This document shows positions 16,708-36,880 of a stretch of DNA of 64,000 nucleotides, one piece after another; the first letter of the stretch is position 1; each line of letters opens with the position of its first letter. Under the pieces are notes generated by a model. The model searched no databases and was not told the DNA's origin. It was given only the letters and a program-made list of their open reading frames with translations. The stretch covers positions 2,193 to 66,192 of IMG/VR virus record IMGVR_UViG_3300014205_000022; one strand, written 5' to 3'. The stretch is from a virus. Its lineage: Duplodnaviria; Caudoviricetes. The position numbers and the translations under genes were made by a program.

Positions 16708-18830
16708 TGTTTTGGGCGAAATATGGTACGGCGACCACCTTTCAGTTTCCGATGATTAAGCGGGGCGTGGTGGATTTCGCTCAGTCTGCAGATTGGACTC
16801 CGTCCGCTGCTGACGTCGCGGTGTCGAAAGACAACGGAGATTTAGAGGACGCGACGAACGCTCCGGCCATCGTTGGTGGGTCTCCGACTCGCGGGGTCAG
16901 CAAATTCAAATGGGCGGCAACCGCGACAGAGTTGGAATGTGCGGTGTTGGAGGTGCAAATTGTCGACGCGGCAACCAAGGCCGTTGAAGATCAGTCGTTC
17001 GCCGTCTACACCTACGGCCACGCGTCGGCATTCTTCAAGGGTGACTGGTCGGACATCGTGCGATTGGGGCTGGTGGCTTTGCCGAATGCCGCCTACAACG
17101 CCCCCGGTGGGCTCGTTGGCAGCGCCGCCGGCGGGCTGGATCTGGACACCCAACTCGGCAAGCTGGTGGGGACTCTGGCGGCCGGGACACATCAGCCGCA
17201 GACCGGGGACTCCTACCCCATCGTCAGCAGCGGGACGCACGGCAACGCGGCGATCAAGACAGATCTTGACAAGATCCCCAAGTCTGATGGCACGGTGGCG
17301 TTCAACGCGACGGCGGTTGGCGGGATTCAGAGCGGGCTGGCCACTGCTCTTGCAGTGTCTGCTTTGCAAACTGATCTTACGACACTCGTTGGACGACTCA
17401 CATCAGCCCGAGCCGGATACCTCGATAATCTCAACGCTGGTGGGGTAGTGGCGTCGCAGGCTGACATCAATGCGCTGAACCAGTCAGCCAGTCGTCGTGT
17501 GATTCTGACGACGGTGCAGCAGTATGAACGTCCGGAATCTGGGACTTCCACCTTCACCATTGAGATGCGAACCTACGACGGTGATGGTGCTGCAGTAGAC
17601 GCAGACTCAACTCCGTCGCTTGCGGTTGTCGGTAATGTAAGCGGTGATCTCTCTGCGAATCTATCCGCTGGAACCAACCCAGCAACTGGTCTTTACTCAT
17701 GGACATACACGGTAGAGTCCACTGACGCCATTGAGCAGCTTCGATTTGCTGTGTCACCGACGATTGGTGGCTCACAGTTTCCGCTGTCTTCGTTCGCTCA
17801 AGTTGTTGACTTCGTGGCAGCAACCTGGACCACCGATGACCGCGTAATGCTGACTGGTGTCTTCGACAAGCTTCCGACGAATGGCATCGCTGATCAGACA
17901 TTGCTCGCGGCGGCGATTGGCACTCCGATGCAGGCTGGTGATTATGAAGCTCCAGACAACGCTGGAATAGCCGCAGCAGAGACTGCTGCACTTGCAGCGC
18001 AGACAGCGGCAGAGGCTGTCCCAACTGCTGCTGAGAATGCTGCTGGGATCCAGACGTATTACGCAGCAAACAAAGGAACGGCTAGCAACTTTGCTAGAGC
18101 TATCATGCTGGGTGAAGAACCGATCTTTACCTCGACTGTGACCAACGCGATGACTCCGTCAGATCAAACGTTCTCGATCGATGATGGCAACGGAGCGTAC
18201 AACTTACTATCGTTAGGTGACCATCCGATGCGGGTAACGCAAGCATCAGGGTTCCAGCTAGTCACACCAGGAATCATTCAATCATCAGCGTCTGATGGGA
18301 ATGGAAACATTCTCGTTAGCATCTACGAAGCCATCGGCTTCACACCAGCCATTGGTGACAGGGCTGAGATTTTCGCAAAGCACGTGCACTCCGTTGATAG
18401 CATTGCGATCGCTAGTCAAATTCGAATGGATTCAAGTAGCGCGAAGCTTGCCACTGCTGCTTCTGGTGTTACCACGCTGCTTACACGCATCACGTCAACG
18501 CTGTTCACTGGAATCACAACGCTTCTTGATCATCTGCTCAGTACTTCGCGTGCTGCGAAATTCGAACGAACAGTTGGTGCTATGTGCACGGGAACGGTTG
18601 GAACCGGATCAACAATTACAAGTATCGTGTGCTCTGCAATAGACCCAGCCGGTGTAGACGCTGATCAGTTCAAAGGCCGCATTATCATCTTCGATGACGG
18701 TACAACTACGACTGCACTGCGTGGTCAGGGCGCACCGATTCTTGGGTCAACTGCAGCAGGCCTTCCAGTGTTCACCGTGACCGCTCTTACTCGTGCGCCG
18801 GTTAACGGCGACACATTCACGATCAACTAA
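16707..18830 (+). CDS. Long Ala/Thr/Gly-rich fibre-like structural protein
   Basis: About 707 aa with mosaic beta domains and helical spacers; contains VGTGST. Confidence 0.6.
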   Translation: MFWAKYGTATTFQFPMIKRGVVDFAQSADWTPSAADVAVSKDNGDLEDATNAPAIVGGSPTRGVSKFKWAATATELECAVLEVQIVDAATKAVEDQSFAVYTYGHASAFFKGDWSDIVRLGLVALPNAAYNAPGGLVGSAAGGLDLDTQLGKLVGTLAAGTHQPQTGDSYPIVSSGTHGNAAIKTDLDKIPKSDGTVAFNATAVGGIQSGLATALAVSALQTDLTTLVGRLTSARAGYLDNLNAGGVVASQADINALNQSASRRVILTTVQQYERPESGTSTFTIEMRTYDGDGAAVDADSTPSLAVVGNVSGDLSANLSAGTNPATGLYSWTYTVESTDAIEQLRFAVSPTIGGSQFPLSSFAQVVDFVAATWTTDDRVMLTGVFDKLPTNGIADQTLLAAAIGTPMQAGDYEAPDNAGIAAAETAALAAQTAAEAVPTAAENAAGIQTYYAANKGTASNFARAIMLGEEPIFTSTVTNAMTPSDQTFSIDDGNGAYNLLSLGDHPMRVTQASGFQLVTPGIIQSSASDGNGNILVSIYEAIGFTPAIGDRAEIFAKHVHSVDSIAIASQIRMDSSSAKLATAASGVTTLLTRITSTLFTGITTLLDHLLSTSRAAKFERTVGAMCTGTVGTGSTITSIVCSAIDPAGVDADQFKGRIIIFDDGTTTTALRGQGAPILGSTAAGLPVFTVTALTRAPVNGDTFTIN

Positions 18831-19066
18831 TGGCCATTACACAACTACAGTTGTCCGGCGTGTATGGGATGCGTTACGGCTCTTTTGAGGGTCGTGCGGA
18901 ATTCACCCCGGTTATTGGTATGATCCTGATTGAGCGTATAAGTATCGACCCAGGGACGCGTTTCGTTCATAGCGTGTATCCATCGGTAAGCGTAAGCGAT
19001 GCAGAAGTTTCGACAAGTGATGTGTTGCCAATGAAAGTTGATCAAGCATATAGGGGCAGAGAATGA
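18830..19066 (+). CDS. Small hypothetical structural protein
   Basis: Start and stop coupled with both neighbours. Confidence 0.55.
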   Translation: MAITQLQLSGVYGMRYGSFEGRAEFTPVIGMILIERISIDPGTRFVHSVYPSVSVSDAEVSTSDVLPMKVDQAYRGRE

Positions 19067-19836
19067 CTGATGTCCTGTATCTTGATACAGACAATGTGTA
19101 CCGTGTTGATGGTGTTAAGAACTCTCAGACTGGCGAGTTCATTAACGACGCTGTTGTTACGCTAACACTTAAAGATGCTGATGGTGTCGAGATAGTCGGC
19201 GAGACGTGGCCGCTGACTCTTGACTACGTTGCTGGCAGCGACGGTTCATACCAAGCGGCGCTTACTGACGCGCTTGAGTTAGTTGATGGTGAGACGGGCA
19301 CGGCTGTCCTTGAGATCGATGGTGATAGTCTTCAAACGACTCTTGAGCTACCAATCCAGTTCGCCACACGTGGTCAGGCGTCTCTTGCTTGGACGTCGTC
19401 ATCTGAACTGTATGCGATGTTTGGGCGAACTAATGTTCGTAAGTGGGCGGACCTTGAGAACATAGCTAATGAAGACGATATCTCGCTTCGTCTTCAATGG
19501 GCTATTGACGAAGCAACTGAAGAAGCGAGAATGCAACTAACAGACTCGCCGGTTGACTTGCCGAATATGGTATCCGCTCCGCGACCTTTGCGTATCGCTG
19601 TTACGCGTCTTGCTGGCGTGTTCTTGTATGAAGCGCGTGGGATCAAGGATACGTCTGACGAAGAGGGCAAGCACCGGCTGTCATCGCATAAGAAGGCAGC
19701 ACAGACATTCTTTCAGCGCGTGCAAGCTGGTCAACTACGCATTGATGCTGGGTCTACATCATACCCAGTCGTCTCAGACGACACTGATGAGGATTCGCTA
19801 GATGATCTGCAAACTGGGGCAGAGATCTTCCTGTAA
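19063..19836 (+). CDS. Head-tail adaptor (Mu gp36/DUF1320-like) with N-terminal Ig-like domain
   Basis: C-terminal half ELYAMFG...LQWAIDEA...P..L...RLA...LYEAR; N-terminal half is all-beta. Confidence 0.65.
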   Translation: MTDVLYLDTDNVYRVDGVKNSQTGEFINDAVVTLTLKDADGVEIVGETWPLTLDYVAGSDGSYQAALTDALELVDGETGTAVLEIDGDSLQTTLELPIQFATRGQASLAWTSSSELYAMFGRTNVRKWADLENIANEDDISLRLQWAIDEATEEARMQLTDSPVDLPNMVSAPRPLRIAVTRLAGVFLYEARGIKDTSDEEGKHRLSSHKKAAQTFFQRVQAGQLRIDAGSTSYPVVSDDTDEDSLDDLQTGAEIFL

Positions 19837-20620
19837 GACTGGGTTCGACTTAAACGTCGAGCTAGCACCAATCGATCGTCGCTCTGATCACTTCATCAAC
19901 AGGCTTGCACTGGCTACTCAGCTGGGCAAGCCTGTAAGTCTTGATGAGGTTAGCAAGGCTGTGTATGAAGCCATGCTGTCAGCTCATCACTTAGCATTAG
20001 AGACGTGTCGGCTGCGACGCCGCTTATACAAAGCCGGCATGATTGAGATGTCTGATGCGCAGATTAAGAAGATTCTTAACAACTCAACGAAGACGGATAA
20101 GGATGCTCTTCGTGAGTTGTATGGATCCATCGCACGCTCAGTGACGAACAAGTCGATGAGTAAGGTGCGTGAAGATCTTATGAAGGCGGCAATAGGCGAG
20201 GTAAACAACAAGCCTAAGCAAGCTGATAAGAGTCTTAAGTCAGCGCTTGGTGCGACTGGCCCTAACAAGAAGGCAAGCCCAGTTCTTCGCACGGTCTTTA
20301 GAACGCAAACTGCCATCGCGTATAACGCGGCAGCTTGGATTGAAACGCAAGACGATGATGACGTGTGGGGCTATGAGTACACAACCGCCGGTGATGAACG
20401 CGTAAGAGACACGCACGAAGAACTAGACGGGCTGCGATATCCAAAGTCCGACCCATTCTGGGATGTGTACTCACCACCTAACGGATGGAATTGCCGCTGT
20501 TCGCCAGTGCCCATCTATCGTGGAGAGAAGAATGCTAGAAAGAAGACGAAGAAAACACTGCCACCAGTAGATAAAGCATTCAAGACTAATTTTGGGAAAA
20601 TTTTCTCAGTTAGTGTTTGA
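19802..20620 (+). CDS. Head morphogenesis protein (Mu gpF / SPP1 gp7)
   Basis: FRTQTAIAYN...AGDERVRDTH...DPFW...PPNGWNCRC signature; true start uncertain. Confidence 0.9.
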   Translation: MICKLGQRSSCKTGFDLNVELAPIDRRSDHFINRLALATQLGKPVSLDEVSKAVYEAMLSAHHLALETCRLRRRLYKAGMIEMSDAQIKKILNNSTKTDKDALRELYGSIARSVTNKSMSKVREDLMKAAIGEVNNKPKQADKSLKSALGATGPNKKASPVLRTVFRTQTAIAYNAAAWIETQDDDDVWGYEYTTAGDERVRDTHEELDGLRYPKSDPFWDVYSPPNGWNCRCSPVPIYRGEKNARKKTKKTLPPVDKAFKTNFGKIFSVSV

Positions 20621-20646
20621 ACTATATCTAATAGATTAGGTAATCA

Positions 20647-21804
20647 GTGTCTAAGATGGCTAATAAAGATATTATATTCCTGTGCGCATCGACCAGCTTT
20701 GAGAAGACAGAGCTTGGGCCTGATGTGTATCGCAAGGAATTGATTTATCCTGGGCACTTCGTTAAGAAAGATGCGAAAGGCTCAGTCGAGTTTGAGTTGC
20801 CAGTCGACGAGACGCTTCTTGATCATTGGGTAGCAACATTCAACAAGATGAAGGCTGCTGGCATTGAAGTGCCAGTGCCAATCGAGCATACAACTGATCC
20901 TGAGCAACGACGAGGCACTGTTGTTGATCTTAAGAAGGAGATGAACCCAGAGCGGAAAGAGCCGGCGCTTTATGCTTACATTAAGTTCCGTGATCAACCG
21001 ACTGGTGATGCTCTCTCGAAGACGACGCAAGTTAGCTTGTTCTCGCCTCCTGATTTTGTTGACGGCAAGGGCATTAAGTACGTTCGTCCGATCAGGCATG
21101 TTGCTCTTACGGACTACCCGCTCGTTCCCGGGCTCGCTGGATTTGAGAAGGCCATTGCTGCCTCTCTTGTACTCTCACAGGATAAGGAAACACAGATGAG
21201 CCCGATCTCTGATCTTGCTGATCAGCTTGGCGTCGAGTATCCGCAAGGTGCAACCGACGAAGAAATCAAAGCCGCCATCGTGTCTGCTTGGAATTCTGAC
21301 GTGCCCATGGACGGCACCGATGAAGAGCTTGATCCGCTTGAAGGCGAAGATCCTCTTGGCGAGGACGATTCCACGCTGGGCGAAGAAGACCCAACGATGG
21401 AAGACGATGCTGAATTCGGCGACGATCCGATGATGGAAGACGATGCTGGATTCGGCGATGATCCGATGATGGAAGAGGAAGATCCAGTGCCGCAGGCGCC
21501 AGTGTCTGCGTCCATCGTGACGCAGGTGTCCAAGGCGCGTCGCACTGAGCTCGAACAACTGGTTCGTGATCGCAAGATTACGCCAGCTGTTCGTGATCGC
21601 CTTGCTTCGCAATACACGACCGCTGGCAAAGTTGCGTTCGCGCTTTCGCACAGCAATGCTGATGACGGCTTCGATGGTATCGTCGCAGCTCTTTCTCTGA
21701 ACAAGCCTGCGTACCGTACAGGTAGCCGCACGATGGCGCAGGCTGTTGATGGTAGTGACTCTCCGCTGGTTGTCGATGCTGATCGGCGCGCCAAGCGTAA
21801 GTAG
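20647..21804 (+). CDS. Prohead protease/scaffold (Mu gpI-like)
   Basis: VPVPIEH (His) and VSLFSP (Ser) protease motifs, then HVALTDYPLVPGL, followed by an acidic scaffold domain. Confidence 0.8.
   Translation: MSKMANKDIIFLCASTSFEKTELGPDVYRKELIYPGHFVKKDAKGSVEFELPVDETLLDHWVATFNKMKAAGIEVPVPIEHTTDPEQRRGTVVDLKKEMNPERKEPALYAYIKFRDQPTGDALSKTTQVSLFSPPDFVDGKGIKYVRPIRHVALTDYPLVPGLAGFEKAIAASLVLSQDKETQMSPISDLADQLGVEYPQGATDEEIKAAIVSAWNSDVPMDGTDEELDPLEGEDPLGEDDSTLGEEDPTMEDDAEFGDDPMMEDDAGFGDDPMMEEEDPVPQAPVSASIVTQVSKARRTELEQLVRDRKITPAVRDRLASQYTTAGKVAFALSHSNADDGFDGIVAALSLNKPAYRTGSRTMAQAVDGSDSPLVVDADRRAKRK
21397..21468 (+). repeat. 36-bp tandem duplication (MEDDA[EG]FGDDPM x2) in scaffold linker
   Basis: Two near-identical 36-bp units read directly from the sequence. 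Confidence 0.85.
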
Positions 21805-21841: not shown

Positions 21842-22291
21842 ATGGAGATCATGATGACTGTGTTTACGGAACAGCCGCGTCCGTACGACTTCCTCAAGGA
21901 AGAGTACGACCAGCGGTACACCCGGACGACCGGGACGATTCAGAACAAGACTGGTGTCACGATTGCTGCGGGCGCGATTCAGCCAGCCACGCCGCTGAAC
22001 CTGAACGGAACGCAATGGGAAACTCTCAACGTCGGATCTGAATCCGGTGCTGACGGTTTCTTCATTGACCATCGTATCGTACCATCGCTGGCTAACGATG
22101 CGATTTCCACGCTGGAATACCAGATCCTCGTGCGTGGGCCCGCGCTGGTGAATCTGGATGCTGTGCCGGACGATCCTGACGGTTCGACCGGTCCATACAC
22201 CTTGGCGGATCTCAAGACGCGAATGCTCGCGCTTGTTCCGCCGATCGTCGTTCTTCGCGAGCCAGCTACTACCCAGGAACAAACGACCTAG
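21842..22291 (+). CDS. Head decoration protein
   Basis: Lies between scaffold and capsid genes; LVRGPALVN motif, small and beta-rich. Confidence 0.7.
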   Translation: MEIMMTVFTEQPRPYDFLKEEYDQRYTRTTGTIQNKTGVTIAAGAIQPATPLNLNGTQWETLNVGSESGADGFFIDHRIVPSLANDAISTLEYQILVRGPALVNLDAVPDDPDGSTGPYTLADLKTRMLALVPPIVVLREPATTQEQTT

Positions 22292-22355: not shown

Positions 22356-23417
22356 GTGATGGCGCTGTTGGACATCTTTAGCACGGACGCATTTAGCGTC
22401 CACAACCTGTCGATGGCCATCGACAAGCTCCCATACGAGCCTGGTCGAATTGGCCGTCTTAACCTCTTCAAGCCGATGCCGATCACGACTACGATCGCCA
22501 TCGTTGAAGAGCGGTATGGTAAGCTCAGCATCTTGCCGACCATGCCTCGTGGTTCGGAAGGACAGACCACGCAGAGCGGTGTTACACGCAAGATGCGTGC
22601 CTTTCCTGTTCCGCACGTGCCCAACTGGGACGCGGTGCTGGCCTCTGATCTGGAAGGCAAGCGTGCCTTCGGTAGCGAGACCCAGACGGAGATCTTCGCC
22701 GGTGTGGTGAACGATCGACTGGAGATGATGAAGAAGAACCACGAGCTTACTCGTGAGTACCATCGTGTCGGTGCCCTTCACGGTATCGTGTTGGACGCTG
22801 ACGGAACGACGGAGCTGATTAACTGGTTCACCGAGTTTGGGATTACCCAGACCGTTGAATACATCAACTTCTACGACTCTGGCTCGTATGACCAGTCTGA
22901 CCCGGTCATCGACATGAAGCAGAAGTGTACGCTGATCAAGCGCCACGTGCAGGACGCTCTCGGTGCTACGCCGTTCCGCAACCTGCGTGCGTTCTGCGGT
23001 GACACGTTCTTCGACAAGCTGGTCGTTCATCCGACGGTTCGCCGTGCGTATGAACAATACCAGAACAACACCTTCGCTCGCAGTCTTCAGAATGATGAGA
23101 CTGGGTTCGAATTTGGTGGGATCATCTGGGAAAACTACCGTGGGTCGATCGACGGTATTGACTTCTTCGACGACGATGAAGCGATCGTTTTTCCGGAAGG
23201 CTCGGACATCTTCCAGGAAGTCATCGCGCCTGCTGACTTCGTCGAAACCGTGAACACTCGCGGTCAGCCGATTTACGCCAAGCAGGAACGGATGAAGTAC
23301 GACAAGGGTTTGGAACTGCACACGCAGTCCAACATCCTGTACATGTCCGCTCGCCCCAAGGCCCTGATCCGGCTGATCGGAATCGACGAAGCTCCTGGTA
23401 CCGGCTCGACGCCATAA
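22356..23417 (+). CDS. Major capsid protein (lambda E / Phage_cap_E family)
   Basis: DIFSTDAFS...LSMAIDKLPY.PGRIGRLNLF and THEYHR-like TREYHRVGALHG; C-terminal tail APGTGSTP. Confidence 0.92.
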   Translation: MMALLDIFSTDAFSVHNLSMAIDKLPYEPGRIGRLNLFKPMPITTTIAIVEERYGKLSILPTMPRGSEGQTTQSGVTRKMRAFPVPHVPNWDAVLASDLEGKRAFGSETQTEIFAGVVNDRLEMMKKNHELTREYHRVGALHGIVLDADGTTELINWFTEFGITQTVEYINFYDSGSYDQSDPVIDMKQKCTLIKRHVQDALGATPFRNLRAFCGDTFFDKLVVHPTVRRAYEQYQNNTFARSLQNDETGFEFGGIIWENYRGSIDGIDFFDDDEAIVFPEGSDIFQEVIAPADFVETVNTRGQPIYAKQERMKYDKGLELHTQSNILYMSARPKALIRLIGIDEAPGTGSTP

Positions 23418-23426: not shown

Positions 23427-23918
23427 GTGCTGAAAGTCACCGCCTCACTCACCTTGAAGGTCGCTGGTATTGCGTCTGTTAAAGATGTATTTCGGCGACC
23501 TCGAGGTGAGGTGAAGCAGGCGATGGATGAAGCCGGTAAGATCTACGTTACCTTTGTCTTGCGTGAATTTGATAAGAACTCGCGTAACGGCGGTAAGTGG
23601 AAGAAGCTTAATCCGAAAACATCCGAACGCAAGAAGTCGTCTGCAATACTCGTTGACAAGCGTGTGCTTCGCACTGGTCTTGCAACGAGTATTTTCATAA
23701 AAATTCAAGTTAATCCGCGTGTTGCCGTTGTTGCAAAGTTCGGTGGAACTAAGCGGCATCGCGCTGCTAAGATGACGATCGCGGACCTTGCCACAATCCA
23801 TCATATGGGTCTTGGTAACGTCCCTGCTCGTAAGATCCTGGTGACACCCGATCGTGCAACACTTGGTCGCATGTCTAAGAAACTGGTCAATGCGGCAAGA
23901 AAGCAACTTAAGAAGTGA
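23427..23918 (+). CDS. Tail completion / virion morphogenesis protein (Mu gpG-like)
   Basis: KWKKLNPKT...ILVD...L and ATIHHMG...VPARKIL pattern. Confidence 0.75.
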   Translation: MLKVTASLTLKVAGIASVKDVFRRPRGEVKQAMDEAGKIYVTFVLREFDKNSRNGGKWKKLNPKTSERKKSSAILVDKRVLRTGLATSIFIKIQVNPRVAVVAKFGGTKRHRAAKMTIADLATIHHMGLGNVPARKILVTPDRATLGRMSKKLVNAARKQLKK

Positions 23919-24445
23919 CTGGTGTGAATCCATTCGTTGATGTGTACAATGCGTTGTGGAATCTTGCAGAAGATTCGACACCGCTTACCACATTGGTGAA
24001 ACCCAGCAACAGAATCAAGTATAACCAGTCTGTACCATATGACCCTACGAAGGATGAGGTTAGTGAAGCTGACCTTCCTGAGTTGCTGTTGGTAAGTACC
24101 GGCAGTTCAGGCAACCTGCGTCAAAGTTCGTCAACCAGTAGCATCATCCGTCAATATGAGTGGCTGATTGCTACAGGCGACACAAGCTTAGTCAACAAGC
24201 TGCTTCGCGTTGAATGGGCTTTGTTCTGCGCAATGTCAGACTGGCCAACAGTGCTTAATGCATTGACGTTTCAAGGCTCAACGTTCTGCAAGCGAACGCA
24301 GCTTGTGTCAGTTAATTCAGGGCTTACTGACCCTGAGCGAAATCGCGGGATCAACGGTTGGTCATCCATCTGGGCTCTTGAAGTCGAGATGCACTTCAAG
24401 ACAACTGACCTGCATGCAGTCAACATCGGAACCGGGAGCGCATGA
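23915..24445 (+). CDS. Tail terminator-like protein
   Basis: Position before the tail tube gene; DLPELLLV motif; ends in IGTGSA. Confidence 0.6.
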   Translation: MTGVNPFVDVYNALWNLAEDSTPLTTLVKPSNRIKYNQSVPYDPTKDEVSEADLPELLLVSTGSSGNLRQSSSTSSIIRQYEWLIATGDTSLVNKLLRVEWALFCAMSDWPTVLNALTFQGSTFCKRTQLVSVNSGLTDPERNRGINGWSSIWALEVEMHFKTTDLHAVNIGTGSA

Positions 24446-24747: not shown

Positions 24748-25647
24748 ATGGGTGTTCATTCAGGTAAGTTTGGTGTTGTGAATGGTATGAGTACCGTTCG
24801 CACTTGGTCCATCAATGACTCGATGGCGCCAAAGCCGTATGTCGCCAGTAACACGCTGTTCGGCACCGGTCGTCGGCGCGGTATCGAGACGTGGAATGGT
24901 AGCTTTGGCGCCTATGGCCATACACCGTCTGTGTTTCCTGGTGAACAGTTTGAGTTCATCGGCTACACCGCGCCAGACAACGACGTGACTGGTCCGGGCC
25001 TTCGATATAAGGGCCAGTCGCTCGTCGAGAACGTCCAGATCAATTGGAACTGGGGCGGTGGCGACATCATCAACTCGGTCGTCAATTTTCAGGGGCATAT
25101 CGGTCTTACGATTCAGCCGGCTGGGAACGAACTGTACGACTTGTCTATTCCTGAGGTCCCTGAAGTTGTTGGGACCAAGATTGAGTACTCGACGAATGGT
25201 GTTGACTTCGTCGAATGGGAGAATCTTCTATCGGCGACGCTTACCATCAGTTGCGCTCTTCAAGAGTACGTGAACTCGTCGTCGGTCGATACTGATGATC
25301 GTGTGTGGACTGGTCGCAAGTCTGGTCCGATTGACTTCACGCTTGCCATTACAGAGCAAGATGTTGATCGCAGTAAGTTTGAGAAGGGCGACTCCCTCGT
25401 TATTCGAGCGTATGTTAACGCCACGGAATACTACGAACTTAAGTGGACTCAAGTCGCCGAATTCACAGGTATCACGGTTGATCGTGAGACTGGTGCGATC
25501 ATCCAGCAGACGGTGAATCTCAATATGGACGGGTTCGACCCGGCTGCTCTCACCTACAACGCTGCCACTGGCCACATCCTTCTGCCGAGTGGCGAACAGT
25601 GGTGGCCGGCTACGCAGCCGGGAACTGGCTCTGGAACGGGAACCTGA
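24748..25647 (+). CDS. Major tail (tube) protein
   Basis: Beta-rich with an internal two-domain pattern, upstream of chaperone and tape measure genes; ends in PGTGSGTGT. Confidence 0.75.
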   Translation: MGVHSGKFGVVNGMSTVRTWSINDSMAPKPYVASNTLFGTGRRRGIETWNGSFGAYGHTPSVFPGEQFEFIGYTAPDNDVTGPGLRYKGQSLVENVQINWNWGGGDIINSVVNFQGHIGLTIQPAGNELYDLSIPEVPEVVGTKIEYSTNGVDFVEWENLLSATLTISCALQEYVNSSSVDTDDRVWTGRKSGPIDFTLAITEQDVDRSKFEKGDSLVIRAYVNATEYYELKWTQVAEFTGITVDRETGAIIQQTVNLNMDGFDPAALTYNAATGHILLPSGEQWWPATQPGTGSGTGT

Positions 25648-25650
25648 TAG

Positions 25651-28695: not shown

Positions 28696-29458
28696 CTTCT
28701 CCAGTGTAATCGACTGTGCTGAAGAATCGAACTCGTGTAACGAGTCGTACGATGACGAGCGGGGTATTCTTAAAGCCTCTGTGCAGCTGAGATGCGCGTG
28801 GAGCGACCGTCACCTTCTTGTTGCCGACATCTGTGGCAATCGTCTTGCATGGCCTAAGGGCGCTGCAGGGCAAGTGCCGCTTGCAGCGACTGCTGCGATC
28901 GTACCAGTTGAGACACCTGGGTCTCCGTCGGCGTCTGGTCAAGAAATGCTGTACGGTGAGGCTCTTGTCACGATTAACTACACGACTGAAATCGTTGACA
29001 TCGTATCTGAGTCCATTGAGCCGTATGCTGAGTTCATCACTCTTGATCACAAGTGGTTTAGGTGGGGTGCAGCAGACGGTGATGTTCTTCGTGAAGAGGA
29101 AGCACCAGGCAAGCTCGTTCGAGGTATTAACTTCGTGCGGACGGAGTTGAACAAGACGAGTGTCGCCGCTGCCCTTATCACGTTGATTGGTCATGTGAAT
29201 AACGCTACAGTTGTTGGTAGCATCATCAACTTCTCATATCCCGCAGAGACGCTTCTGTTTGCGCCTCCGAGTATTTCATACAAGAAAGATTCGACAGGTG
29301 TAACGAAGTTCGACATCACAAAGAAGTTCACGTACAACGAACATGGATGGAACAAGTTCTATCGGTCGAACACCGCAGCGTGGACGAGCATCTATGTTGC
29401 TGGTGGTGCCGAATATAAGAACTATCCAGTCACTGATCTCTCTGGCCTGTTTGCTTAA
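28688..29458 (+). CDS. Distal tail / tail tip protein
   Basis: Immediately follows the tape measure gene; beta-rich. Confidence 0.55.
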   Translation: MANFSSVIDCAEESNSCNESYDDERGILKASVQLRCAWSDRHLLVADICGNRLAWPKGAAGQVPLAATAAIVPVETPGSPSASGQEMLYGEALVTINYTTEIVDIVSESIEPYAEFITLDHKWFRWGAADGDVLREEEAPGKLVRGINFVRTELNKTSVAAALITLIGHVNNATVVGSIINFSYPAETLLFAPPSISYKKDSTGVTKFDITKKFTYNEHGWNKFYRSNTAAWTSIYVAGGAEYKNYPVTDLSGLFA

Positions 29459-30501
29459 TGCCCAACAACTTCAGAGACTTCCCGCACGTCAACCCAAGGT
29501 CAATCGTAAGAGGTTGGCGCGGCGAGCTTGTGAATGCAGTTTTTGATGCTGTTAGGTTTCGTGACGTTCCACAAGGTCCGCACGGTCGTGGAGATCGCTC
29601 TGGTAATCAGACCCGTCCTCGTCCGTATGCCAAGGATCATCTGTCTTGGCATCGCTGTATAAGCAGTGATAATGTAGACCCATTTTCAATTGTTGAGGTC
29701 TATGATTCAACTGTAGATGCTACTGGTCCTCTTCTTAAAGTGAACATTGAGGGGACTGGAACGGGGTCTGGAACAGCGACGACGTCGATCACTGAAAAGC
29801 TTTATGCGGGCAACGAACAATACACTCTTATTCGTGGAAAGCCCGGATGGGTTAAGCTTATTACTCCATATGAACCAGTCTTGGTTCGTGCATCGTTGGA
29901 CACGCAGTTCTATGATGACCTTGAGATAGACGGATCTGCTGTAACACCGGGCGCGGCAACAGGTCTTATAGCGCTTTCACCGCGAAATAGTGAAGAGCGA
30001 TGCTATGTTCTGTATCAACCAATCGCTAAGACAGCGCGCTTTAAGATCACACAGACCGGTGTTGGAACTGGAACTGGGTCGACCGATAGCACAGAGGCCG
30101 TGTATAGGACGTCCCATCCGGCTGGTGTATATGCGCAACGAGTGGATGAGTTAGACGCGCCAAACGGTATTGATGAACTGATTTACGCAGACTTCGTTCG
30201 TGGAGTCTACATCACAGGCGACGTAGTCTGGTGTGAATATCGTAATAGTGAATGGCAGATACGAGACGACGGAACTCTGTTATGGAAAGCTACTGCTATT
30301 GTGGACGTTGTTAGCGGTGGCCCAGGACTTGTGCGGTTGCACCATGCGAATTCGGTGGCATGTGCTGTTCAGGCAAGTACTTTTGACAGCACAGACTCAA
30401 TAACAACAGGCACTGACTGTTTGGTTACGTGGATGGACGGATCGCAGCAGTTTTACGCCTTGCCAGTTACCTGCCCGGCGTCAGCAGTAGAATATGCCTA
30501 A
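29458..30501 (+). CDS. Tail tip/baseplate-associated protein with two GTGTGS tracts
   Basis: Position in the tail module; contains EGTGTGSGT and VGTGTGST. Confidence 0.55.
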   Translation: MPNNFRDFPHVNPRSIVRGWRGELVNAVFDAVRFRDVPQGPHGRGDRSGNQTRPRPYAKDHLSWHRCISSDNVDPFSIVEVYDSTVDATGPLLKVNIEGTGTGSGTATTSITEKLYAGNEQYTLIRGKPGWVKLITPYEPVLVRASLDTQFYDDLEIDGSAVTPGAATGLIALSPRNSEERCYVLYQPIAKTARFKITQTGVGTGTGSTDSTEAVYRTSHPAGVYAQRVDELDAPNGIDELIYADFVRGVYITGDVVWCEYRNSEWQIRDDGTLLWKATAIVDVVSGGPGLVRLHHANSVACAVQASTFDSTDSITTGTDCLVTWMDGSQQFYALPVTCPASAVEYA

Positions 30502-32150
30502 TGCCAAAGATTGGTAAACTACGATGTGGCTGTGACTGTAAGAACCAGACCGAACTGGTGGAGCAGGGCTATGTTGGAACGGGGACCGCCCTAGCTGATG
30601 CGCCCTGCTGCGATGCGTACCCGAACGGAACGCCCTGCCGATATGCGATCATCTTTGAATGCGGACACGACTGGCCATTGATGGTCCAGTCGTCTTGTCT
30701 AACCGGAGGCACGGAAATCGGGGGACTGATTTACGTCCCCTACGGGGTTCTCTTGAACGAGAATCTTGAAGGGCTGTGCCAAGCCCCCACCCCACTCGGG
30801 TTAACCTTCCCGGTTATGGAAGTCTTGAGAGACTGCCCGAGCGATATCACGGGTGAGTGTATCTACACCAACCGGCTCTACTACAACTTCATCAAGCCAA
30901 GCGGGTTTGAAACCCACATGGCAACGTCGTACCTAATCGACCGGGGTGCAGATGCGGAGAACATCAAGTTCCCTCCCTATCGTCTCAACGCCGGGGCAGT
31001 CGAGTATACGAAAGCGAGATACGGACGGGGCTTTGCTGATCCGAACCGCGGACCTGACATTGACGACGACGCTTGTTACCATCCATATGATTTGGGGTTC
31101 GAGTATTCAACGCTCTGGGAGTTGAAGATCGCTGCTTCTCCCGTTTCTCTTGAATGGGTTTATGACGACGTCTTGAATGCGATGCCACAGTTTGCGGAAA
31201 CAGGTACTGGGTCTGGGCCTAATCCCCACCGCCCGAGGTATGAAGCCGTTGATACCTGGAACCTTTGGGGACGTAACACGATGGTGTTAACGAATCCCGA
31301 GGACTGGCCCGCTCTTCCTAAGTCGATCTGCGTTGTTCCCGAAAGCTATGGCGGAATCGTCAACCAGTGCACCTCACACGAACAGCAATGCACCTGCTGC
31401 GACATCGGCGAAGCTACCGGAGTTATCTGGCCAACTATCACAGGCTGTGACAAGCTCAACGGCACATACACAGGTGTTAGTCAACGATACGTTGACGGGG
31501 ACACTCTGCCGCCCGGCGTAACGATGCCGGGAGATGCGCCGTGTGGGTTCTTCTGGAGCTTAATCGGACCGGATGACGAGTGCGACATTAGTGGGACGAC
31601 CTGGTCATCAACAATCGGATTGATGACTTACTGCGATGGAACAACTCAGCACGTCGTGCCCTACTGTTACAACGTCGATACGAGCCAGTTCGTTGAGCAG
31701 ACCGAAGCGACCGTTACCGTCCAGGAGTGTACGTGTCAGGGTCTCTACTTTGAGTTTGAACTCTCGTCAGACCTTGACTGTTGCTGCCCCCCGATAGTTC
31801 CGGCCTGCAACTGCGACGAAACATGCCTGACTGTCACGTACAGTAGTACCGTGCTGACGTCATTCTTCGATCCACCATGCGTAGTTCCAGGAAGGACTGT
31901 GGTGCTGAACGGCTCCCCAGAGGGATGTGCTTGGTCTGAGTTGCCCGCGTTCTCTTCGATCTTTCAGGTCGGCGTCGGACCTACGACTTATTTCGAGATG
32001 CAGATCTCGTTTCAAGGTTCTGGGTGCAGCTTCTCTCCTCGCTATCGTCGAGAAAATTCCCTGGGATGCGTTGGGGTCTACACGCTGAGCAACCACGCCG
32101 GAGCAACCGGAGGTCTTCCAGCAACTCTCACGGTGAGTGCTTGCCCATGA
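30501..32150 (+). CDS. Cys-rich putative receptor-binding/tail fibre protein
   Basis: ATG at 30501; many Cys pairs (CGCDC, PCCD, CTCCD, DCCCPP); last gene of the tail module. Confidence 0.55.
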   Translation: MPKIGKLRCGCDCKNQTELVEQGYVGTGTALADAPCCDAYPNGTPCRYAIIFECGHDWPLMVQSSCLTGGTEIGGLIYVPYGVLLNENLEGLCQAPTPLGLTFPVMEVLRDCPSDITGECIYTNRLYYNFIKPSGFETHMATSYLIDRGADAENIKFPPYRLNAGAVEYTKARYGRGFADPNRGPDIDDDACYHPYDLGFEYSTLWELKIAASPVSLEWVYDDVLNAMPQFAETGTGSGPNPHRPRYEAVDTWNLWGRNTMVLTNPEDWPALPKSICVVPESYGGIVNQCTSHEQQCTCCDIGEATGVIWPTITGCDKLNGTYTGVSQRYVDGDTLPPGVTMPGDAPCGFFWSLIGPDDECDISGTTWSSTIGLMTYCDGTTQHVVPYCYNVDTSQFVEQTEATVTVQECTCQGLYFEFELSSDLDCCCPPIVPACNCDETCLTVTYSSTVLTSFFDPPCVVPGRTVVLNGSPEGCAWSELPAFSSIFQVGVGPTTYFEMQISFQGSGCSFSPRYRRENSLGCVGVYTLSNHAGATGGLPATLTVSACP

Positions 32151-33235
32151 ACATTCTCTCTCAATACCCACGGCTGAAGAAAATCTCTGGTCCGCCGCAA
32201 CTGGGCGAGCAGAGCAAGATTCTGCAGTCGAAAGTAGCAAGCTACGGACCCGGAACCGAACTCAAGAAACTGCTGCAGGAACTTGGTATCTCGATGAAGT
32301 CATCTTGTGGTTGCGAAAGTCGTGCAACACAGATGAATATCTGGGGTGTGAAAGGCTGTCGTAATCATCTTGAAGAAATCGTTGTATGGATTAAGAGCGC
32401 GTCTAACGAAGTAAGCGTCTTTGACAAAGTAATGGCCGGGTGGAATGCGCTAAAATTGCGAATCCCGCTTGACCCGCTTGACCCGTTTAGAAGCATAGTT
32501 CTTATCGCCATAAGCAGGGCAGAGAAAGCGAGTGTAAAAACTATGGAGTGGTCGTATGGTGTTACCACTGTTCCAAGTCGTCTTAACACCACGCTACCTG
32601 TCACTCTGGAGTCTCTTAAGCTGGCAGGCTTTGAGACCCCACGCTTATTCATCGATGATTGTGAAGACGCATCTGAATTCAAAAAACTAGACCTGCCTAT
32701 CACATCACACTGGCCACGTATGCATGTGAACGGCAACTGGATTCTTTCCGTCATTGAGCTGTATCTGCGCCAGCCTGAGGCACAACGATACGCTATCTTT
32801 CAGGACGACTTTGTTACGTACCGAAATCTTCGTCAATATCTTGAACAAGTTCCGTACCCTGAGAACGGGTATTGTAACTTGTACACAGTTCCACGGTATG
32901 AGAGAGCGGGTGCTCAACACAAAGGCTGGTTTAAAGCGATTCCGCAGTACGGTATTGGGGCCGTGGCACTGGTGTTCACTCGTGACGCAGTCAAGGCGCT
33001 GTTTGATAATCGTCATATGATAGACAAGATGCATGGACCAGACCCTGTTAAGAGAATCAAATCAGTGGATGGCGGCATTGTGTCTGCGATGAACAAGTCT
33101 GGATGGTATGAGTATGTTCATATGCCATCATTGGTTCAACACATCGGTGATGTTAGTGCAGCAGGCAATGATCAAAGTAAGAAACCACGATCGTTTCGTG
33201 GTGAGTCATATGACGCGCTGGAGATGCTCAGGTGA
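32147..33235 (+). CDS. Glycosyltransferase (GT-A-like) with N-terminal Cys-containing domain
   Basis: YAIFQDD (DxD-like) and PSLVQHIGDVS motifs; N-terminal GPGTELKKLL...CGCESRA..MN.WG..GC domain. Confidence 0.7.
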   Translation: MNILSQYPRLKKISGPPQLGEQSKILQSKVASYGPGTELKKLLQELGISMKSSCGCESRATQMNIWGVKGCRNHLEEIVVWIKSASNEVSVFDKVMAGWNALKLRIPLDPLDPFRSIVLIAISRAEKASVKTMEWSYGVTTVPSRLNTTLPVTLESLKLAGFETPRLFIDDCEDASEFKKLDLPITSHWPRMHVNGNWILSVIELYLRQPEAQRYAIFQDDFVTYRNLRQYLEQVPYPENGYCNLYTVPRYERAGAQHKGWFKAIPQYGIGAVALVFTRDAVKALFDNRHMIDKMHGPDPVKRIKSVDGGIVSAMNKSGWYEYVHMPSLVQHIGDVSAAGNDQSKKPRSFRGESYDALEMLR

Positions 33236-34170
33236 ACGAACAGCAGTGTATCAGTAAGATGATTGCGCCTGGAACGCCTCGTAGAGGCAAGTGGCGACAA
33301 GGCGTGATCCAGATCAGGATCATTCGATCATGTGATATGGCGTGCTTTGGCTGCACTCAAGCCAGTCAGATATCTGGTTCGCCAGAGCGAATGACTGTTG
33401 ACCAGTTTGAAGTCGCCGTGAAATCGCTCGCCGGATACTTCGGTGTTGTTGGTGTGTTTGGCGGCAATCCCGCCGCGCACCCGCAGTTCAACGAGATCTG
33501 TGAGGTTCTTAAAGCACACGTACCATTTGTTCAACGTGGATTGTGGTGTAACAATCCGCTAGGCAAAGGTAAAGTAATGGCAGAGACATTCAACCCTATG
33601 CACTCGAATTTGAATGTGCATATGAATCAATCTGCGTTCGATGAGTTCAAGCGAGACTGGCCAGAATCACGACCAGTTGGTTTGGAAGGTGCGTCGCGTC
33701 ATTCACCAGTTCACGGGTCGATGGTTGATCTTGGTGTCTCTGAACCAGAACGCTGGGAACGCATTTCGAAGTGTGATATCAATCAGCACTGGTCGGCGAT
33801 CATCGCAGCCGTCAACGGCAGCATCAAAGCGTATGCTTGCGAGATCATGGCGTCTCAAGCATTCCTACGCCGTAATGGCCCAACGTTTGTTGACACGGGT
33901 ATGCCCGTTGAATCGGGTTGGTGGAAGCTGCCTATGTCGGCGTTTGCTGATCAGGTAAGAACCAATTGCCATCACTGCTTGGTCCCTATGCGTGGATATG
34001 GCGAGCTTGATACCGCCGGGGCAGACGGTGTTGATCGAACCACAACGATGTACGCGCTGGATTTCAAGCCGAAGAAACAGCGCGTTGTTGAAGTGATGAC
34101 GCATGTTGACCAGCTGCAGGTCGATAAGCTTAAGACAACAGTAGACTACATCGGGAATGCCAGCAAATGA
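33232..34170 (+). CDS. Radical SAM enzyme
   Basis: CDMACFGC (CxxxCxxC), FGGNP, and extra C-terminal cysteines that may form an auxiliary cluster site. Confidence 0.85.
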   Translation: MNEQQCISKMIAPGTPRRGKWRQGVIQIRIIRSCDMACFGCTQASQISGSPERMTVDQFEVAVKSLAGYFGVVGVFGGNPAAHPQFNEICEVLKAHVPFVQRGLWCNNPLGKGKVMAETFNPMHSNLNVHMNQSAFDEFKRDWPESRPVGLEGASRHSPVHGSMVDLGVSEPERWERISKCDINQHWSAIIAAVNGSIKAYACEIMASQAFLRRNGPTFVDTGMPVESGWWKLPMSAFADQVRTNCHHCLVPMRGYGELDTAGADGVDRTTTMYALDFKPKKQRVVEVMTHVDQLQVDKLKTTVDYIGNASK

Positions 34171-34733
34171 GCGAGCTGTTTAAGCAGTGGCCAACAACGT
34201 TAGGTCGTCAAGCTCTTGCTGGTATTTGCCGTGAACGTGGCTTGACGAAGACGGCAGTAGAAATTGGCGTATGGCGAGGCGACTTCTCTCGCCCGTTCTT
34301 TGACGAATGGGACGGTGAGAAGATGTATCTTATTGACCCGTGGCAACCACCGGCCGGTTATGTAGACATCAGAGCGGATGAGCACGATCCGTCTGATTAT
34401 CAATACGTGATGGATCGGTTCATAGGGTTTCAAGAGCGCGTTAACATCCTCAAGACGACCAGTAAGCTCGCCTTGCGACACGGATTCGTTCCAAACGACT
34501 TAAGCTTTGTCTACATTGATGGTGATCACAGCTTTAATGCTGTTCTGTTTGACATGATCAACTGGTACGAGAAGCTGGCGCCTGGCGGCATATTGGCTGG
34601 TCATGACCTATTCGCCCCAGAGCTTTGTGGTGTAACGAATGCAGTGGTCGAGTTCGCCAGACTGCACAACGAGATCGACAGCGTACACGTCATAGCTGAT
34701 AACTATGACTCCTGGTTTGTAATTAAGCCGTAG
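34167..34733 (+). CDS. Class I SAM methyltransferase (Methyltransf_24-like)
   Basis: VEIGVWRG, YLIDPW, FVYIDGDHS and LAPGGILAGHD. Confidence 0.88.
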   Translation: MSELFKQWPTTLGRQALAGICRERGLTKTAVEIGVWRGDFSRPFFDEWDGEKMYLIDPWQPPAGYVDIRADEHDPSDYQYVMDRFIGFQERVNILKTTSKLALRHGFVPNDLSFVYIDGDHSFNAVLFDMINWYEKLAPGGILAGHDLFAPELCGVTNAVVEFARLHNEIDSVHVIADNYDSWFVIKP

Positions 34734-34742
34734 GTAGTAATC

Positions 34743-35384
34743 ATGACAGATGTCGTTGACTGGTCGTTGCGTACGTGGAAAGAGCGCCATGATAAAGGCT
34801 ACTTTCCTAACTCTCAAGAGCACGCCAACTGGTATGTGTATGACGCTGTTCCAGACTGGTTGATTGAGCATGGTGAACTCAACAACAAATGTAATGCTCT
34901 TGAAATCGGGTGCGGTTACGGTCAGTGGATGATCCCGCTGTCAAAGCATGTTGGGCATGTCAGCGGATTCGATATTCATGCGGCTCCGATTGCAAAAGCC
35001 ATCGAGAAGTTCAATGCGCATGGCGTATTCAATGCGTCTGTCGGACTAGGGCACGGCGATACGATTCAGTATCCAAGCGGCGTGTTTGATCTTGTGTATT
35101 CGATCAGCGTGTTTCAGCACTTGCCACGACCGATGGTATTGAGCTATCTCAAAGAGTCAAAGCGAGTTCTGGTTGATAATGGAGTCGCCGTTCACCACTT
35201 TAGGAACGCTGATAACGTTGGGCCGTATCCCAAACCAGCAGACGACATCGTCGTTAACCATACGGGTGATTTCTCCTGCGGTTGGACTACACAGCAGATC
35301 ATTGATGCAGCTGGTGAAGCTGGATTCACTCACTGCAAGGTCATCGACTTAGGGCTGTTTCTTGTTCTTGTGGCGGACAAATAA
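34743..35384 (+). CDS. Class I SAM methyltransferase (Methyltransf_11-like)
   Basis: ALEIGCGYG, SGFDI, FDLVYSISVFQHL and LVDNG. Confidence 0.88.
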   Translation: MTDVVDWSLRTWKERHDKGYFPNSQEHANWYVYDAVPDWLIEHGELNNKCNALEIGCGYGQWMIPLSKHVGHVSGFDIHAAPIAKAIEKFNAHGVFNASVGLGHGDTIQYPSGVFDLVYSISVFQHLPRPMVLSYLKESKRVLVDNGVAVHHFRNADNVGPYPKPADDIVVNHTGDFSCGWTTQQIIDAAGEAGFTHCKVIDLGLFLVLVADK

Positions 35385-35397
35385 CAGTAGGAACAGT

Positions 35398-36159
35398 ATG
35401 AAGCTCTCAGTTCTCATGCCCGCGCTGGAATCTCGCCCGTGGGCTAAGATGGCAAATCATGTACGCCAGATGGCGAGTGATTTCCCAGGTGACGTCGAAT
35501 TCATTATGGATCTCGACAACGGTAAAGCCACAAGTGGCGTTAAGCGACAGAGGCTGACTGATCGTGCGCAAGGCGAGTACGTCTGCTTTGTTGACGACGA
35601 CGATAGTCTGTCTGATGATTACGTCGGCGAACTGATGCGTGGTTGCTATGAAGGGGTTGATGTTGTATCATTCGATCTTTCATTGACATCTACGCGTCGT
35701 CGAGGTGTTGTAGAGAAGTGGTCGTTCGGCATGCAAGCAAACGATCGCAAGCATGGTAAGATGTGCGTTAACCATCTTTGCGCATGGCGAACCAGTATCG
35801 CTAGGTTGGTTCGCTGGTGCCCTGTTCTCGGCTATGCAGATGACCGTGTATGGTTTGAGCCGCTGTTCCACTCTGGCTCCGTGAAGACGCATTATCACGT
35901 TGACAAGGTCCTGTATAGGTATCTGTTCAACGACGCATTGACGCAGAACCAGACAACAAAGCGCGTTCAAGCAACGAAGGACTATATCAAAGATGGCCTT
36001 CGTTGTTTCTTTGATAGGCAAACACGAGAAATTCTTATCGAAGCCGGGTGGCAAAGGCGCGATACTGGTCGTGTTGTTGTACGCGGGCCGCATCCAACAG
36101 ACACACCGATGCGTAACCTAGACGAACTGGAACAGTTCCATGTTATCACGATGGCATGA
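35398..36159 (+). CDS. Glycosyltransferase family 2-like
   Basis: KLSVLMP, GEYVCFVDDDD and GYADD. Confidence 0.85.
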   Translation: MKLSVLMPALESRPWAKMANHVRQMASDFPGDVEFIMDLDNGKATSGVKRQRLTDRAQGEYVCFVDDDDSLSDDYVGELMRGCYEGVDVVSFDLSLTSTRRRGVVEKWSFGMQANDRKHGKMCVNHLCAWRTSIARLVRWCPVLGYADDRVWFEPLFHSGSVKTHYHVDKVLYRYLFNDALTQNQTTKRVQATKDYIKDGLRCFFDRQTREILIEAGWQRRDTGRVVVRGPHPTDTPMRNLDELEQFHVITMA

Positions 36160-36880
36160 AGTTGATAAGACAGCAGTGATCGTGTGTGTCGAGTATTCAG
36201 ACTTGCTTATGGCGACGTTGAACTACAACCGTCATCACTTCAGTCGAGTGTTGGTTGTCACAACGCCTCAAGATGTCGCCACTCACGCGGTGTGCAAGAG
36301 TCTTGATGCTGAGATCTTTCAGACGACGTCATTCTATGATAACGGCGCCAAATTCGCCAAGTACCGGGCGCTTGAGAAAGGGCTCGATGCTGCTGGTCGG
36401 TCAGGCTGGATAGTTCTTATCGACGCAGACGTATTGTGGCCATCACAGATTCCAGACTGGCCAATGTGCAAGGAACATCTTTACACACCGTTGAGAAACA
36501 ACTTCGTTCAGTTCAACGGCGATGTCCCGCCAGAGGCAGAGTGGTCAAAGTTTCCCAAGCACCCGTGGGACAAAGAGTTCAGCGGTCACACTCAAATCTT
36601 TCATTCAGACTGTAGCGTGCTTGGGCCTGCACCTTGGCATGATGTAAGCTGGAAACACGCAGGTGGTGGTGACAGCGAGTTTCAAGCTAAGTGGAATGAA
36701 CTCAATCGAGTGCGACCGCCGTTCACGTGCTTGCATCTTGGTCAACCCGGGCAATGGACTGGTCGAGTGACAGAGATTAACGGCGAGACACCTGCACAAG
36801 CGAAAGAGCGCCGTGAAGCACTTGAGCAGTTTATGCGCACACGAAGAAAAACGCGTTCATACGAACATGAGAAAGAGTAA
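36140..36880 (+). CDS. Glycosyltransferase (GT-A fold)
   Basis: VIVCVEYSDLL, WIVLIDADV (DxD), GGGDSEF and CLHLG. Confidence 0.75.
   Translation: MLSRWHEVDKTAVIVCVEYSDLLMATLNYNRHHFSRVLVVTTPQDVATHAVCKSLDAEIFQTTSFYDNGAKFAKYRALEKGLDAAGRSGWIVLIDADVLWPSQIPDWPMCKEHLYTPLRNNFVQFNGDVPPEAEWSKFPKHPWDKEFSGHTQIFHSDCSVLGPAPWHDVSWKHAGGGDSEFQAKWNELNRVRPPFTCLHLGQPGQWTGRVTEINGETPAQAKERREALEQFMRTRRKTRSYEHEKE

Follow-up and report, generated by a model that had tools for sequence, protein, structure and literature searches.

In the mycobacteriophages Che8, Corndog, and Myrna, glycans are attached at the C-termini of the capsid and tail-tube proteins by phage-encoded transferases, as summarized in two articles that draw on Freeman et al. 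2023 (Cell Host Microbe 31:1216; PMC12619734, PMC12363180; see also PMC13445384). The two articles also describe Che8 gp110 as essential (PMC12619734, PMC12363180). Here, we analyzed a 64,000-nt stretch of DNA (hereafter, the window) corresponding to positions 2193-66192 of the 66,192-bp IMG/VR virus record IMGVR_UViG_3300014205_000022, a record that has direct terminal repeats and was judged complete. In this environmental, uncultivated phage (about 50% G+C), several virion proteins carry short tags of repeated Gly-Thr or Gly-Ser pairs (G-T/S tags), and six enzyme genes (32147-36880) directly follow the tail genes. The first-pass annotation of the window proposed that the tetrapeptide GTGS is the acceptor of a virion glycosylation system built by these enzymes, invoking the mycobacteriophages as precedent for C-terminal capsid and tube glycosylation by phage glycosyltransferases (GTs), in agreement with the two articles (PMC12619734, PMC12363180). 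By analogy, the virion of the window phage is probably sugar-coated as in the mycobacteriophages, with a different enzyme and a different tag.

Comparison with Described Glycosylation Systems

In the GenBank record of Che8, the capsid protein ends in ..NKTGS* and the tube protein in ..YSDGS*, and the cassette consists of gp108 (GT2 and Methyltransf_24/TylF domains), gp109 (GT2), and gp110 (GT25). The major capsid protein (MCP; ..PGTGSTP*) and tail tube protein (..PGTGSGTGT*) of the window also have Ser/Thr at the extreme C-terminus, and one of the window enzymes, GT2a, matches the GT2 domain of gp108 (28% identity, E 5e-9). Each cassette has GT2 enzymes along with a Methyltransf_24 domain and an additional enzyme of the GT-A type, and in these sequence comparisons the window cassette resembles the proven Che8 cassette. 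There are, however, several differences between the two. The candidate initiating enzyme in the window (GT1) comes from an unannotated family and is not detectably GT25, the tag is a (G-T/S)n repeat that also occurs on the connector and, in relatives, on the tip protein, and the cassette includes a radical S-adenosylmethionine (SAM) enzyme. While the window cassette lies directly after the tail genes, that of Che8 is found at the right end of the genome, and the cellular homologues of the window GT1 are mostly from Planctomycetota and Verrucomicrobiota, not Actinobacteria. Finally, the window system is known from genes alone, whereas the Che8 glycans have been shown experimentally.

A more distant parallel is found in Gram-positive bacteria, where GtfA/GtfB carry out cytoplasmic O-glycosylation of serine-rich repeat adhesins, and accessory transferases encoded alongside extend the glycan. 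The likeness lies in short Ser/Thr-containing dipeptide-type repeats and a dedicated cytoplasmic initiating transferase. However, GtfA/GtfB are GT-B enzymes acting on repeats of hundreds of residues in a secreted adhesin, while tags of the window type span 4-14 residues and are located on virion subunits.

Tags on the Virion Proteins

A six-frame search of the window recovered seven in-frame copies of GTGS in six virion proteins, bearing out the initial count of proteins. Three of the copies are C-terminal, in the MCP (23397-23408, ..APGTGSTP*), in a 176-aa connector/terminator-like protein (open reading frame (ORF) 23915-24445; GTGS at 24428-24439, ..NIGTGSA*), and in the tail tube protein, where GTGS begins at 25621 in a tag spanning 25621-25644 and the protein ends in ..WWPATQPGTGSGTGT (PGTGSGTGT). 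The first-pass annotation had the positions of this trio and the identities of the MCP and tube right; the name "tail terminator" for the 176-aa protein is an assignment by gene position, because its profile had no match among PDB sequences (nor did the protein have a PHROG match). Internal copies occur in the tail-tip protein, at 29758 in the run GTGTGSGT (29752-29775) and at 30070 in the run GTGTGS (30064-30081), and in a Cys-rich fiber protein (ORF 30429-32150) at 31203, with GTGT also present at 30576. The two tip sites had originally been placed at 29752 and 30064; the internal runs there are real, and it is GTGTGS that starts at these positions, with GTGS itself six nucleotides on. The last copy (18600-18611) is internal to a 714-aa protein (16686-18830, + strand), which had been called a long fiber. 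While this site is in frame, the protein itself has no Pfam or PHROG match and its role is unassigned; whether it belongs to the system is uncertain, and its lone GTGS could be due to chance. None of the non-structural ORFs contains GTGS, the other six-frame matches (7060, 27669, and 21491 on the minus strand) falling in non-coding frames, and the Ser codon varies among the copies (TCA, TCG, AGC, or TCT), both as first described.

Compared with within-protein shuffles, GTGS is strongly over-represented, with seven copies observed versus 0.43 expected (0 of 20,000 shuffles reached seven) and three C-terminal copies observed versus 0.012 expected. It is also the most widely shared tetrapeptide of the proteome (six proteins), although the protein count alone is weak evidence given that the runners-up reach five proteins. 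The triple C-terminal placement is the stronger fact: with full look-elsewhere correction, any tetrapeptide reached three or more C-termini in 125 of 20,000 shuffles (P about 0.006).

Comparison with homologues indicates that the tails are appended, as untagged MCP and connector cores stop before them. MCPs of the E-like type without a tag end near ..TRPxxLVKGTxx, and connector homologues share a conserved core up to ..EVEMHF.T.DL followed by a variable tail (alignment A4). Likewise, all tube homologues (87/87) have a conserved WWP end and then a variable tail, which is (G-T/S)n in the closest homologues, of the APTTT type in another group, SSSS or ..AQS in some, and absent in the more distant ones. 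In the AlphaFold model of the tube protein (predicted local distance difference test (pLDDT) 88), the last eight residues (292-299) score <50 and are predicted to be disordered; in Foldseek comparisons, this model matched the DT57C/T5 pb6 tube (8e-10 to 1e-8) and the P74-26 tube (2e-7).

A single-protein search of IMG/VR for relatives of the tube returned none, while an alignment-based search recovered relatives. The lineage set comprises 20-odd genomes (cited here by L numbers), with L002-L010 coming from Logan, ENA, and JGI. The tag flavor is concerted in each genome of this set, with the same type present on capsid, connector, tube, and often tip. Tags of the GTGS type are found on capsid, connector, and tube in the window, L002, and L366; the flavor is GTGT in L005 and GSGS in L006, in the latter on four proteins (capsid, connector, tube, and tip), and both L007 and L008 have mixed G-T/S tags. 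In total, (G-T/S)n tags were noted in seven relatives plus the window. The APTTT flavor is seen on capsid, connector, and tube in L003 and L367, and the SSS flavor on capsid and connector in L004 and L014, while L009, L010, L015, L020-L022, and others are tag-free. The tail-tip homologues follow suit in L005 (..NGTGT), L006 (..GSGSGSGS), and L008 (..GTGTGSGSG). In a quick tree of the tube proteins, tagged forms fall in one derived clade, within which G-T/S and poly-T tails interleave, each with at least four changes. The tags are real, non-random, and concerted in flavor within genomes. The idea of a tag stood, with the actual motif broader than the proposed GTGS, namely (G-[TS])n, including GTGT, GSGS, and GTGS. 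We also noted MCP ends without a Ser/Thr run in L011 (..SGLYS), L013 (..ANLVS), L034 (..EPVVS), and L125 (..SGLIS), all genomes without GT1.

Association of the Tags with the GT1 Family

The first gene after the tail genes, GT1 (32147-33235, + strand), has a start that overlaps the stop of the fiber gene. Its catalytic domain is present in the window, L002, L005, L006, L008, and L366, that is, in six of seven lineage genomes with multi-protein G-T/S tags versus 0 of 15 others (nine of these checked on whole records; Fisher P 9e-5, without correction for shared ancestry). L003 is an informative case, as its capsid is 64% identical to that of the window, closer than those of L005-L008, and yet its tags are poly-T and it lacks the GT1 catalytic domain. 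The expectation that tags and transferases co-vary across relatives was borne out to this extent: those keeping GT1 keep G-T/S tails, and those without it have other tails or none. It did not extend to the enzyme cluster as a whole, which had been tied to GTGS in its entirety; the first enzyme family tracks the tag, while the radical SAM enzyme and the other transferases do not.

The pairing was also seen outside of the lineage, among 80 IMG/VR loci for which a GT1-family gene served as the anchor; just three of them share the tube and terminator families of the window. In these 80 loci, the C-terminus is (G[TS])2+ in 31 of 1654 ORFs versus 1.8 expected by shuffling, an excess of about 17-fold, and the tagged ORFs are spread over 27 loci and 11 unrelated protein clusters. 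In 80 control loci anchored on an E-like capsid and without GT1, 0 of 1132 ORFs are tagged (1.1 expected; P 9e-8). A C-terminal tag is present in 12 of 24 near-complete GT1-bearing genomes. For 23 of these, whose ORF set recovered GT1, we counted G-T/S runs along the genome, finding 65 within 4 kb of GT1 versus 8.4 expected from composition, compared to 101 versus 52 elsewhere in the same genomes, with one or more runs beside GT1 in 20 of the 23. The roughly half of near-complete genomes with no C-terminal tag have internal G-T/S runs in neighboring tail proteins. Given that the excess is seen in both the 80 loci and the 23 genomes, the pairing of the GT1 family with G-T/S runs is general, and in the window lineage it takes the specific form of tags at the C-termini of the main subunits of head, neck, and tube.

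GT1 and the Rest of the Enzyme Cassette

GT1 displayed no match in Pfam, NCBIfam, or PHROG, and a Pfam search with 40 members of its family returned no transferase family at E<=1. In its AlphaFold2 model (pLDDT 88.5), the protein has a helical CxC..C domain at the N-terminus (residues ~30-130) along with a GT-A catalytic domain spanning ~230 aa. The model has 219 PDB matches at E<=1e-3 with GT-A enzymes on top, the best Foldseek matches (4e-7 to 6e-5) being POMGnT1 (5ggi; 4e-7), mimivirus R655/R699, ppGalNAc-T2 (4d11, 6nqt), and COLGALT1 (9evk). Five residues are invariant in 40 homologues: F218, D220, and D221 (..FQDD..), H325, and H332. As modeled, GT1 is an enzyme of the GT-A fold with an intact metal-binding motif. 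It shares this fold and a DxD-type motif with the matched enzymes, several of which act on protein Ser/Thr or protein-linked sugars; however, with identities of 9-14% and template modeling (TM) scores of 0.3-0.4, the likeness is at the level of the fold only. Unlike these eukaryotic and giant-virus enzymes, GT1 has no lectin or stem domain and instead has the small helical, Cys-containing domain at its N-terminus.

The family has >758 homologues, none with a Pfam domain in the GT1 region, and in some members the protein is fused to a GT1-type (PF00534) or a radical SAM (PF04055) domain; two members match DUF6171. Cellular homologues of the catalytic domain (L209-L248; 26-40% identity) come almost exclusively from Planctomycetota and Verrucomicrobiota metagenome-assembled genomes, some on contigs of Mb size, and G-S tag ends were present in 1 of 488 neighboring ORFs. 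The taxa of these genomes hint at the host range of the phage without establishing a host. In relatives lacking the catalytic domain, the N-terminal domain (32147-32540 in the window) occurs as a separate small ORF beside other transferases (L003:17815-18330, L009:16588-17022, and L010:18043-18285), and it may be an adaptor or targeting domain.

The second enzyme gene (33232-34170, + strand) encodes a probable radical SAM enzyme with a C34-x3-C38-x2-C41 motif. The first-pass annotation listed three GTs, two SAM methyltransferases, and a radical SAM enzyme in this cluster, and the fold of GT1, GT2a, and both methyltransferases are supported, while the match of the radical SAM enzyme lies below the cut-off (Pfam Radical_SAM 2e-5, 25.3 bits versus 29.5) and that of the last transferase is weak. 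The nearest Atlas clusters of the radical SAM enzyme are radical SAM proteins (score 0.99, TM 0.86). A search for its subfamily returned weak N-terminal matches only, to HpnH, MoaA, ArsS, QueE, and BlsE. The family is phage-specific, and fusions seen in other phages, with Exostosin_GT47 (Atlas TM 0.82) and with a GT1-family protein (P0198, 547 aa), connect it with glycan work, though not with a particular chemistry; the window protein is probably a glycan-tailoring enzyme. Given that homologues are kept in L011 and L016, both without GT1 and with non-hydroxyl tags, the enzyme is not specific to the G-T/S tag. We found no recognition element of the kind used for ribosomally synthesized and post-translationally modified peptides (RiPPs), nor another peptide-modifying accessory domain or binding-partner candidate, beside the gene.

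The remaining genes of the cassette, all on the + strand, encode a Methyltransf_24 (TylF-like class) SAM methyltransferase (34167-34733; Pfam 2.4e-14), a class I SAM methyltransferase (34743-35384; Methyltransf_25/11/12, Pfam 2.8e-16), the GT2-family glycosyltransferase GT2a (35395-36159; phrog_14775 1e-23, with a weak Pfam GT2 match of 1.8e-4), and GT2b (36140-36880), a probable GT-A-like protein with a Glyco_tranf_2_3 match below the cut-off (2e-4) and no PHROG or NCBIfam match. Of the 80 GT1 loci, 23 also have a homologue of the radical SAM enzyme, 16 one of the Methyltransf_24 protein, and 19 one of GT2b. The cluster runs on from the tail genes without a break, stop and start codons overlapping, and is coupled to the late operon. 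Scanning 30000-39500 for promoters and terminators gave results no better than those on shuffled sequence. Homologues of the Cys-rich fiber protein adjoin the transferase in L045-L048.

Proposed Virion O-Glycosylation and Alternative Explanations

We consider it reasonably likely, from the sequence patterns described above, that the C-terminal (Gly-Thr/Ser)n tails and the internal G-T/S runs of the tip and fiber are O-glycosylation acceptor tags. In this scenario, GT1 would be made late, together with the tail proteins, and would act in the cytoplasm, before the virion is assembled or while it is, placing the first sugar on Thr/Ser of the tags, which would be exposed and disordered. GT2a, and possibly GT2b, would then lengthen the glycan, and the radical SAM enzyme and both SAM methyltransferases would tailor it, so that head, neck, tail, and tip would end up coated with glycan. 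We infer, rather than observe, the attachment of sugar, the acceptor residue, the sugar itself, the order of the enzymes, and the biological role, and the same is true of the "methylated, radical-SAM-tailored glycan" put forward in the first-pass annotation.

Several points weigh against virion O-glycosylation. The phage is uncultivated, and its system is known here from sequence alone. A profile comparison of GT1 with Che8 gp110 aligned the DD and PSLV[QD]H motifs but was not significant (hhalign probability 3.5%, E 0.012). Within the lineage, the association of GT1 with the tags is confounded by shared ancestry, and there are tagged genomes in which no partner enzyme was seen: the capsid of L018 (=L035) ends in ..AAGSGSGSA, with no GT1-family gene and no visible transferase island in its whole 43.7-kb record (G050, with direct terminal repeats), and in L007 the sequence at hand showed no GT1 catalytic domain. 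Conversely, transferases after the tail genes need no C-terminal tags, as the untagged L009 and L010 still bear transferase islands there; some such island is present in nearly all lineage relatives, untagged ones included. The 12 of 24 near-complete GT1-bearing genomes without a C-terminal tag mean that the family either has other acceptors or uses internal runs. Finally, L016 has concerted tags with no Ser/Thr run, ..IPSDDDLIS on the capsid and ..CPDDDLIS on the tip (L016:6383-7462 and L016:12715-13500), which suggests that tags can serve something besides glycosylation.

The latter observation is also the starting point of an alternative in which the tails are functional and have nothing to do with glycosylation, acting as docking peptides for a decoration or assembly factor, as targets of some other modification (e.g., by the radical SAM enzyme), or as flexible spacers, with the transferases directed at the host envelope or at tail-fiber sites only. 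Concerted tags lacking a Ser/Thr run (..DDDLIS in L016, for both capsid and tip, and ..LYS, ..LVS, and ..VVS in L011, L013, and L034, respectively) are in line with this, as are the radical SAM homologue kept in the GT1-less L011 and L016, the transferase islands retained in untagged relatives, and the half of GT1-bearing genomes without C-terminal tags. Nevertheless, we regard this alternative as unlikely. Hydroxyl residues abound in the tags that go with GT1, APTTT and SSS are classic O-glycosylation-type sequences, and GT1 tracks G-T/S runs beyond composition in mostly unrelated phages. Moreover, the gene neighborhood of the radical SAM enzyme offered neither a binding partner nor a RiPP recognition element candidate, and the proven Che8-type precedent uses such C-termini. 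That the GTGS copies merely reflect compositional coincidence in Gly/Thr/Ser-rich structural proteins is scarcely credible, even though these proteins are indeed rich in the three residues and the next tetrapeptides reach five proteins to the six of GTGS. The copy count was matched in 0 of 20,000 shuffles, the C-terminal triplet holds at P about 0.006 after correction, the same positions are tagged in homologues of the tube (87 proteins), the capsid, and the connector, and the control loci contain 0/1132 tagged ORFs. Coincidence is ruled out by the comparative data from homologues and control loci.

Another candidate target of the cluster at 32147-36880 is DNA, with sugars on hydroxymethyl- or hydroxy-cytosine being lengthened or diversified and the G-T/S tails unrelated. 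Phage DNA glycans can be di- or trisaccharides made by several transferases, and the clusters responsible are sometimes near structural genes, according to the abstract of Pyle et al. (bioRxiv 10.1101/2023.12.21.572611). The window phage has comparable equipment, in that it combines several transferases with a ThyA-fold cytosine enzyme and NDP-sugar (nucleoside diphosphate sugar) synthesis. A probable cytosine hypermodification module (43442-53480) includes MazG-like, C5-methylase-like, and kinase-like (deoxynucleoside monophosphate (dNMP)-kinase-like) genes, an NDP-sugar nucleotidyltransferase, PolA, and a separate ThyX, and the ThyA-fold enzyme, which has Asp in its GMPYD motif, has as its best PDB match the cytidine monophosphate (CMP) 5-hydroxymethylase MilA (7.5e-23). 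Judging from these genes, the phage very probably makes modified cytosine. However, the DNA pathway appears to have a transferase of its own, since the same module encodes a protein of 415 aa with an Atlas model similar to T4 beta-glucosyltransferase (BGT) clusters (TM 0.61-0.71); in contrast to the T4-type systems and those of Pyle et al., the DNA role in the window would be filled by this separate BGT-like GT-B enzyme. Furthermore, GT1 and the ThyA-like gene each occur without the other, the latter being present in six of nine lineage relatives, none with GT1, and any ThyA-like gene in 12 of 24 near-complete GT1-bearing genomes. GT1 also sits in the late structural operon, not in the replication module. 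With a separate BGT-like module, the uncoupling from ThyA, and this late-operon site, DNA is an unlikely target for GT1, although a DNA role for GT2a or GT2b is possible. As DNA glycosylation by the cluster would in addition leave the tag statistics and the concerted flavors unexplained, we give it little chance of being the correct account.

Genome Organization

A nucleotide search against INPHARED returned no close deposited phage, the matches being 66-123-bp capsid fragments. The genes in the window are mostly on the + strand. A Mu-type portal protein (10183-11685) is followed by ~6.6 kb (12208-18830) of genes without a family match, located between the portal and a Mu F-like head protein (19802-20620); this is an odd location for non-head genes, and the 714-aa GTGS protein is among them. 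In L006, the Mu F-like head protein (L006:4130-5773, 547 aa) has a weak match to an intein-splicing family (PF14890). Next are a protease/scaffold (20647-21804) and a decoration-like protein (21842-22291). The latter and nearly all of its homologues end in ..Q[TS]T whether other tags are present or not, with TQEQTT, TQTT, QQTT, and VQST among the C-termini seen.

The MCP (22356-23417, + strand) is lambda E-like (Phage_cap_E 9e-81, phrog_29 3e-55). It is followed by a Neck1-type connector/tail-completion gene (23427-23918; phrog_222/26), by the connector/terminator-like protein (+ strand), and by the tail tube (24748-25647, + strand; 299 aa), which has a T5 pb6-type double domain by fold match. 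Chaperones and the tape measure (26578-28695) lie between the tube and three distal tail genes, which include those for the tail-tip protein (29458-30501, + strand) and the Cys-rich distal tail/fiber protein (+ strand), the likely start of the latter being an ATG at about 30501. Downstream of the six enzyme genes are a SNF2 helicase and the replication and nucleotide module.

Implications for Virion Glycosylation in Phages

To our knowledge, virion glycosylation has been demonstrated experimentally in only a few mycobacteriophages. The locus described here suggests that it is much more widespread, carried out by an unannotated family of >750 phage-metagenome members, and it offers a candidate portable sequon, (G-T/S)n at the C-terminus, with a single candidate initiating enzyme. 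If correct, this would provide a function for a large orphan family, a sequence rule for predicting glycosylated virions, and a compact tag-enzyme pair for the glyco-engineering of phage particles or other proteins, and would raise the question of what role a glycan coat has for phages outside of an animal host. More tentatively, the tags may form part of a portable tag-and-transferase code, in which interchangeable C-terminal peptides on all exposed virion subunits (G-T/S repeats, APTTT, SSS, and perhaps the non-hydroxyl DDDLIS) are read by cognate cassettes moving between unrelated phages. Were such a code to exist, exchanging cassette and tags together would cover the whole particle, from head and neck to tube and tip, in a new glycan tailored in part by radical SAM chemistry. 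Since water and sediment are the habitat of these phages, the purpose of the coat would lie elsewhere than in evading antibodies.

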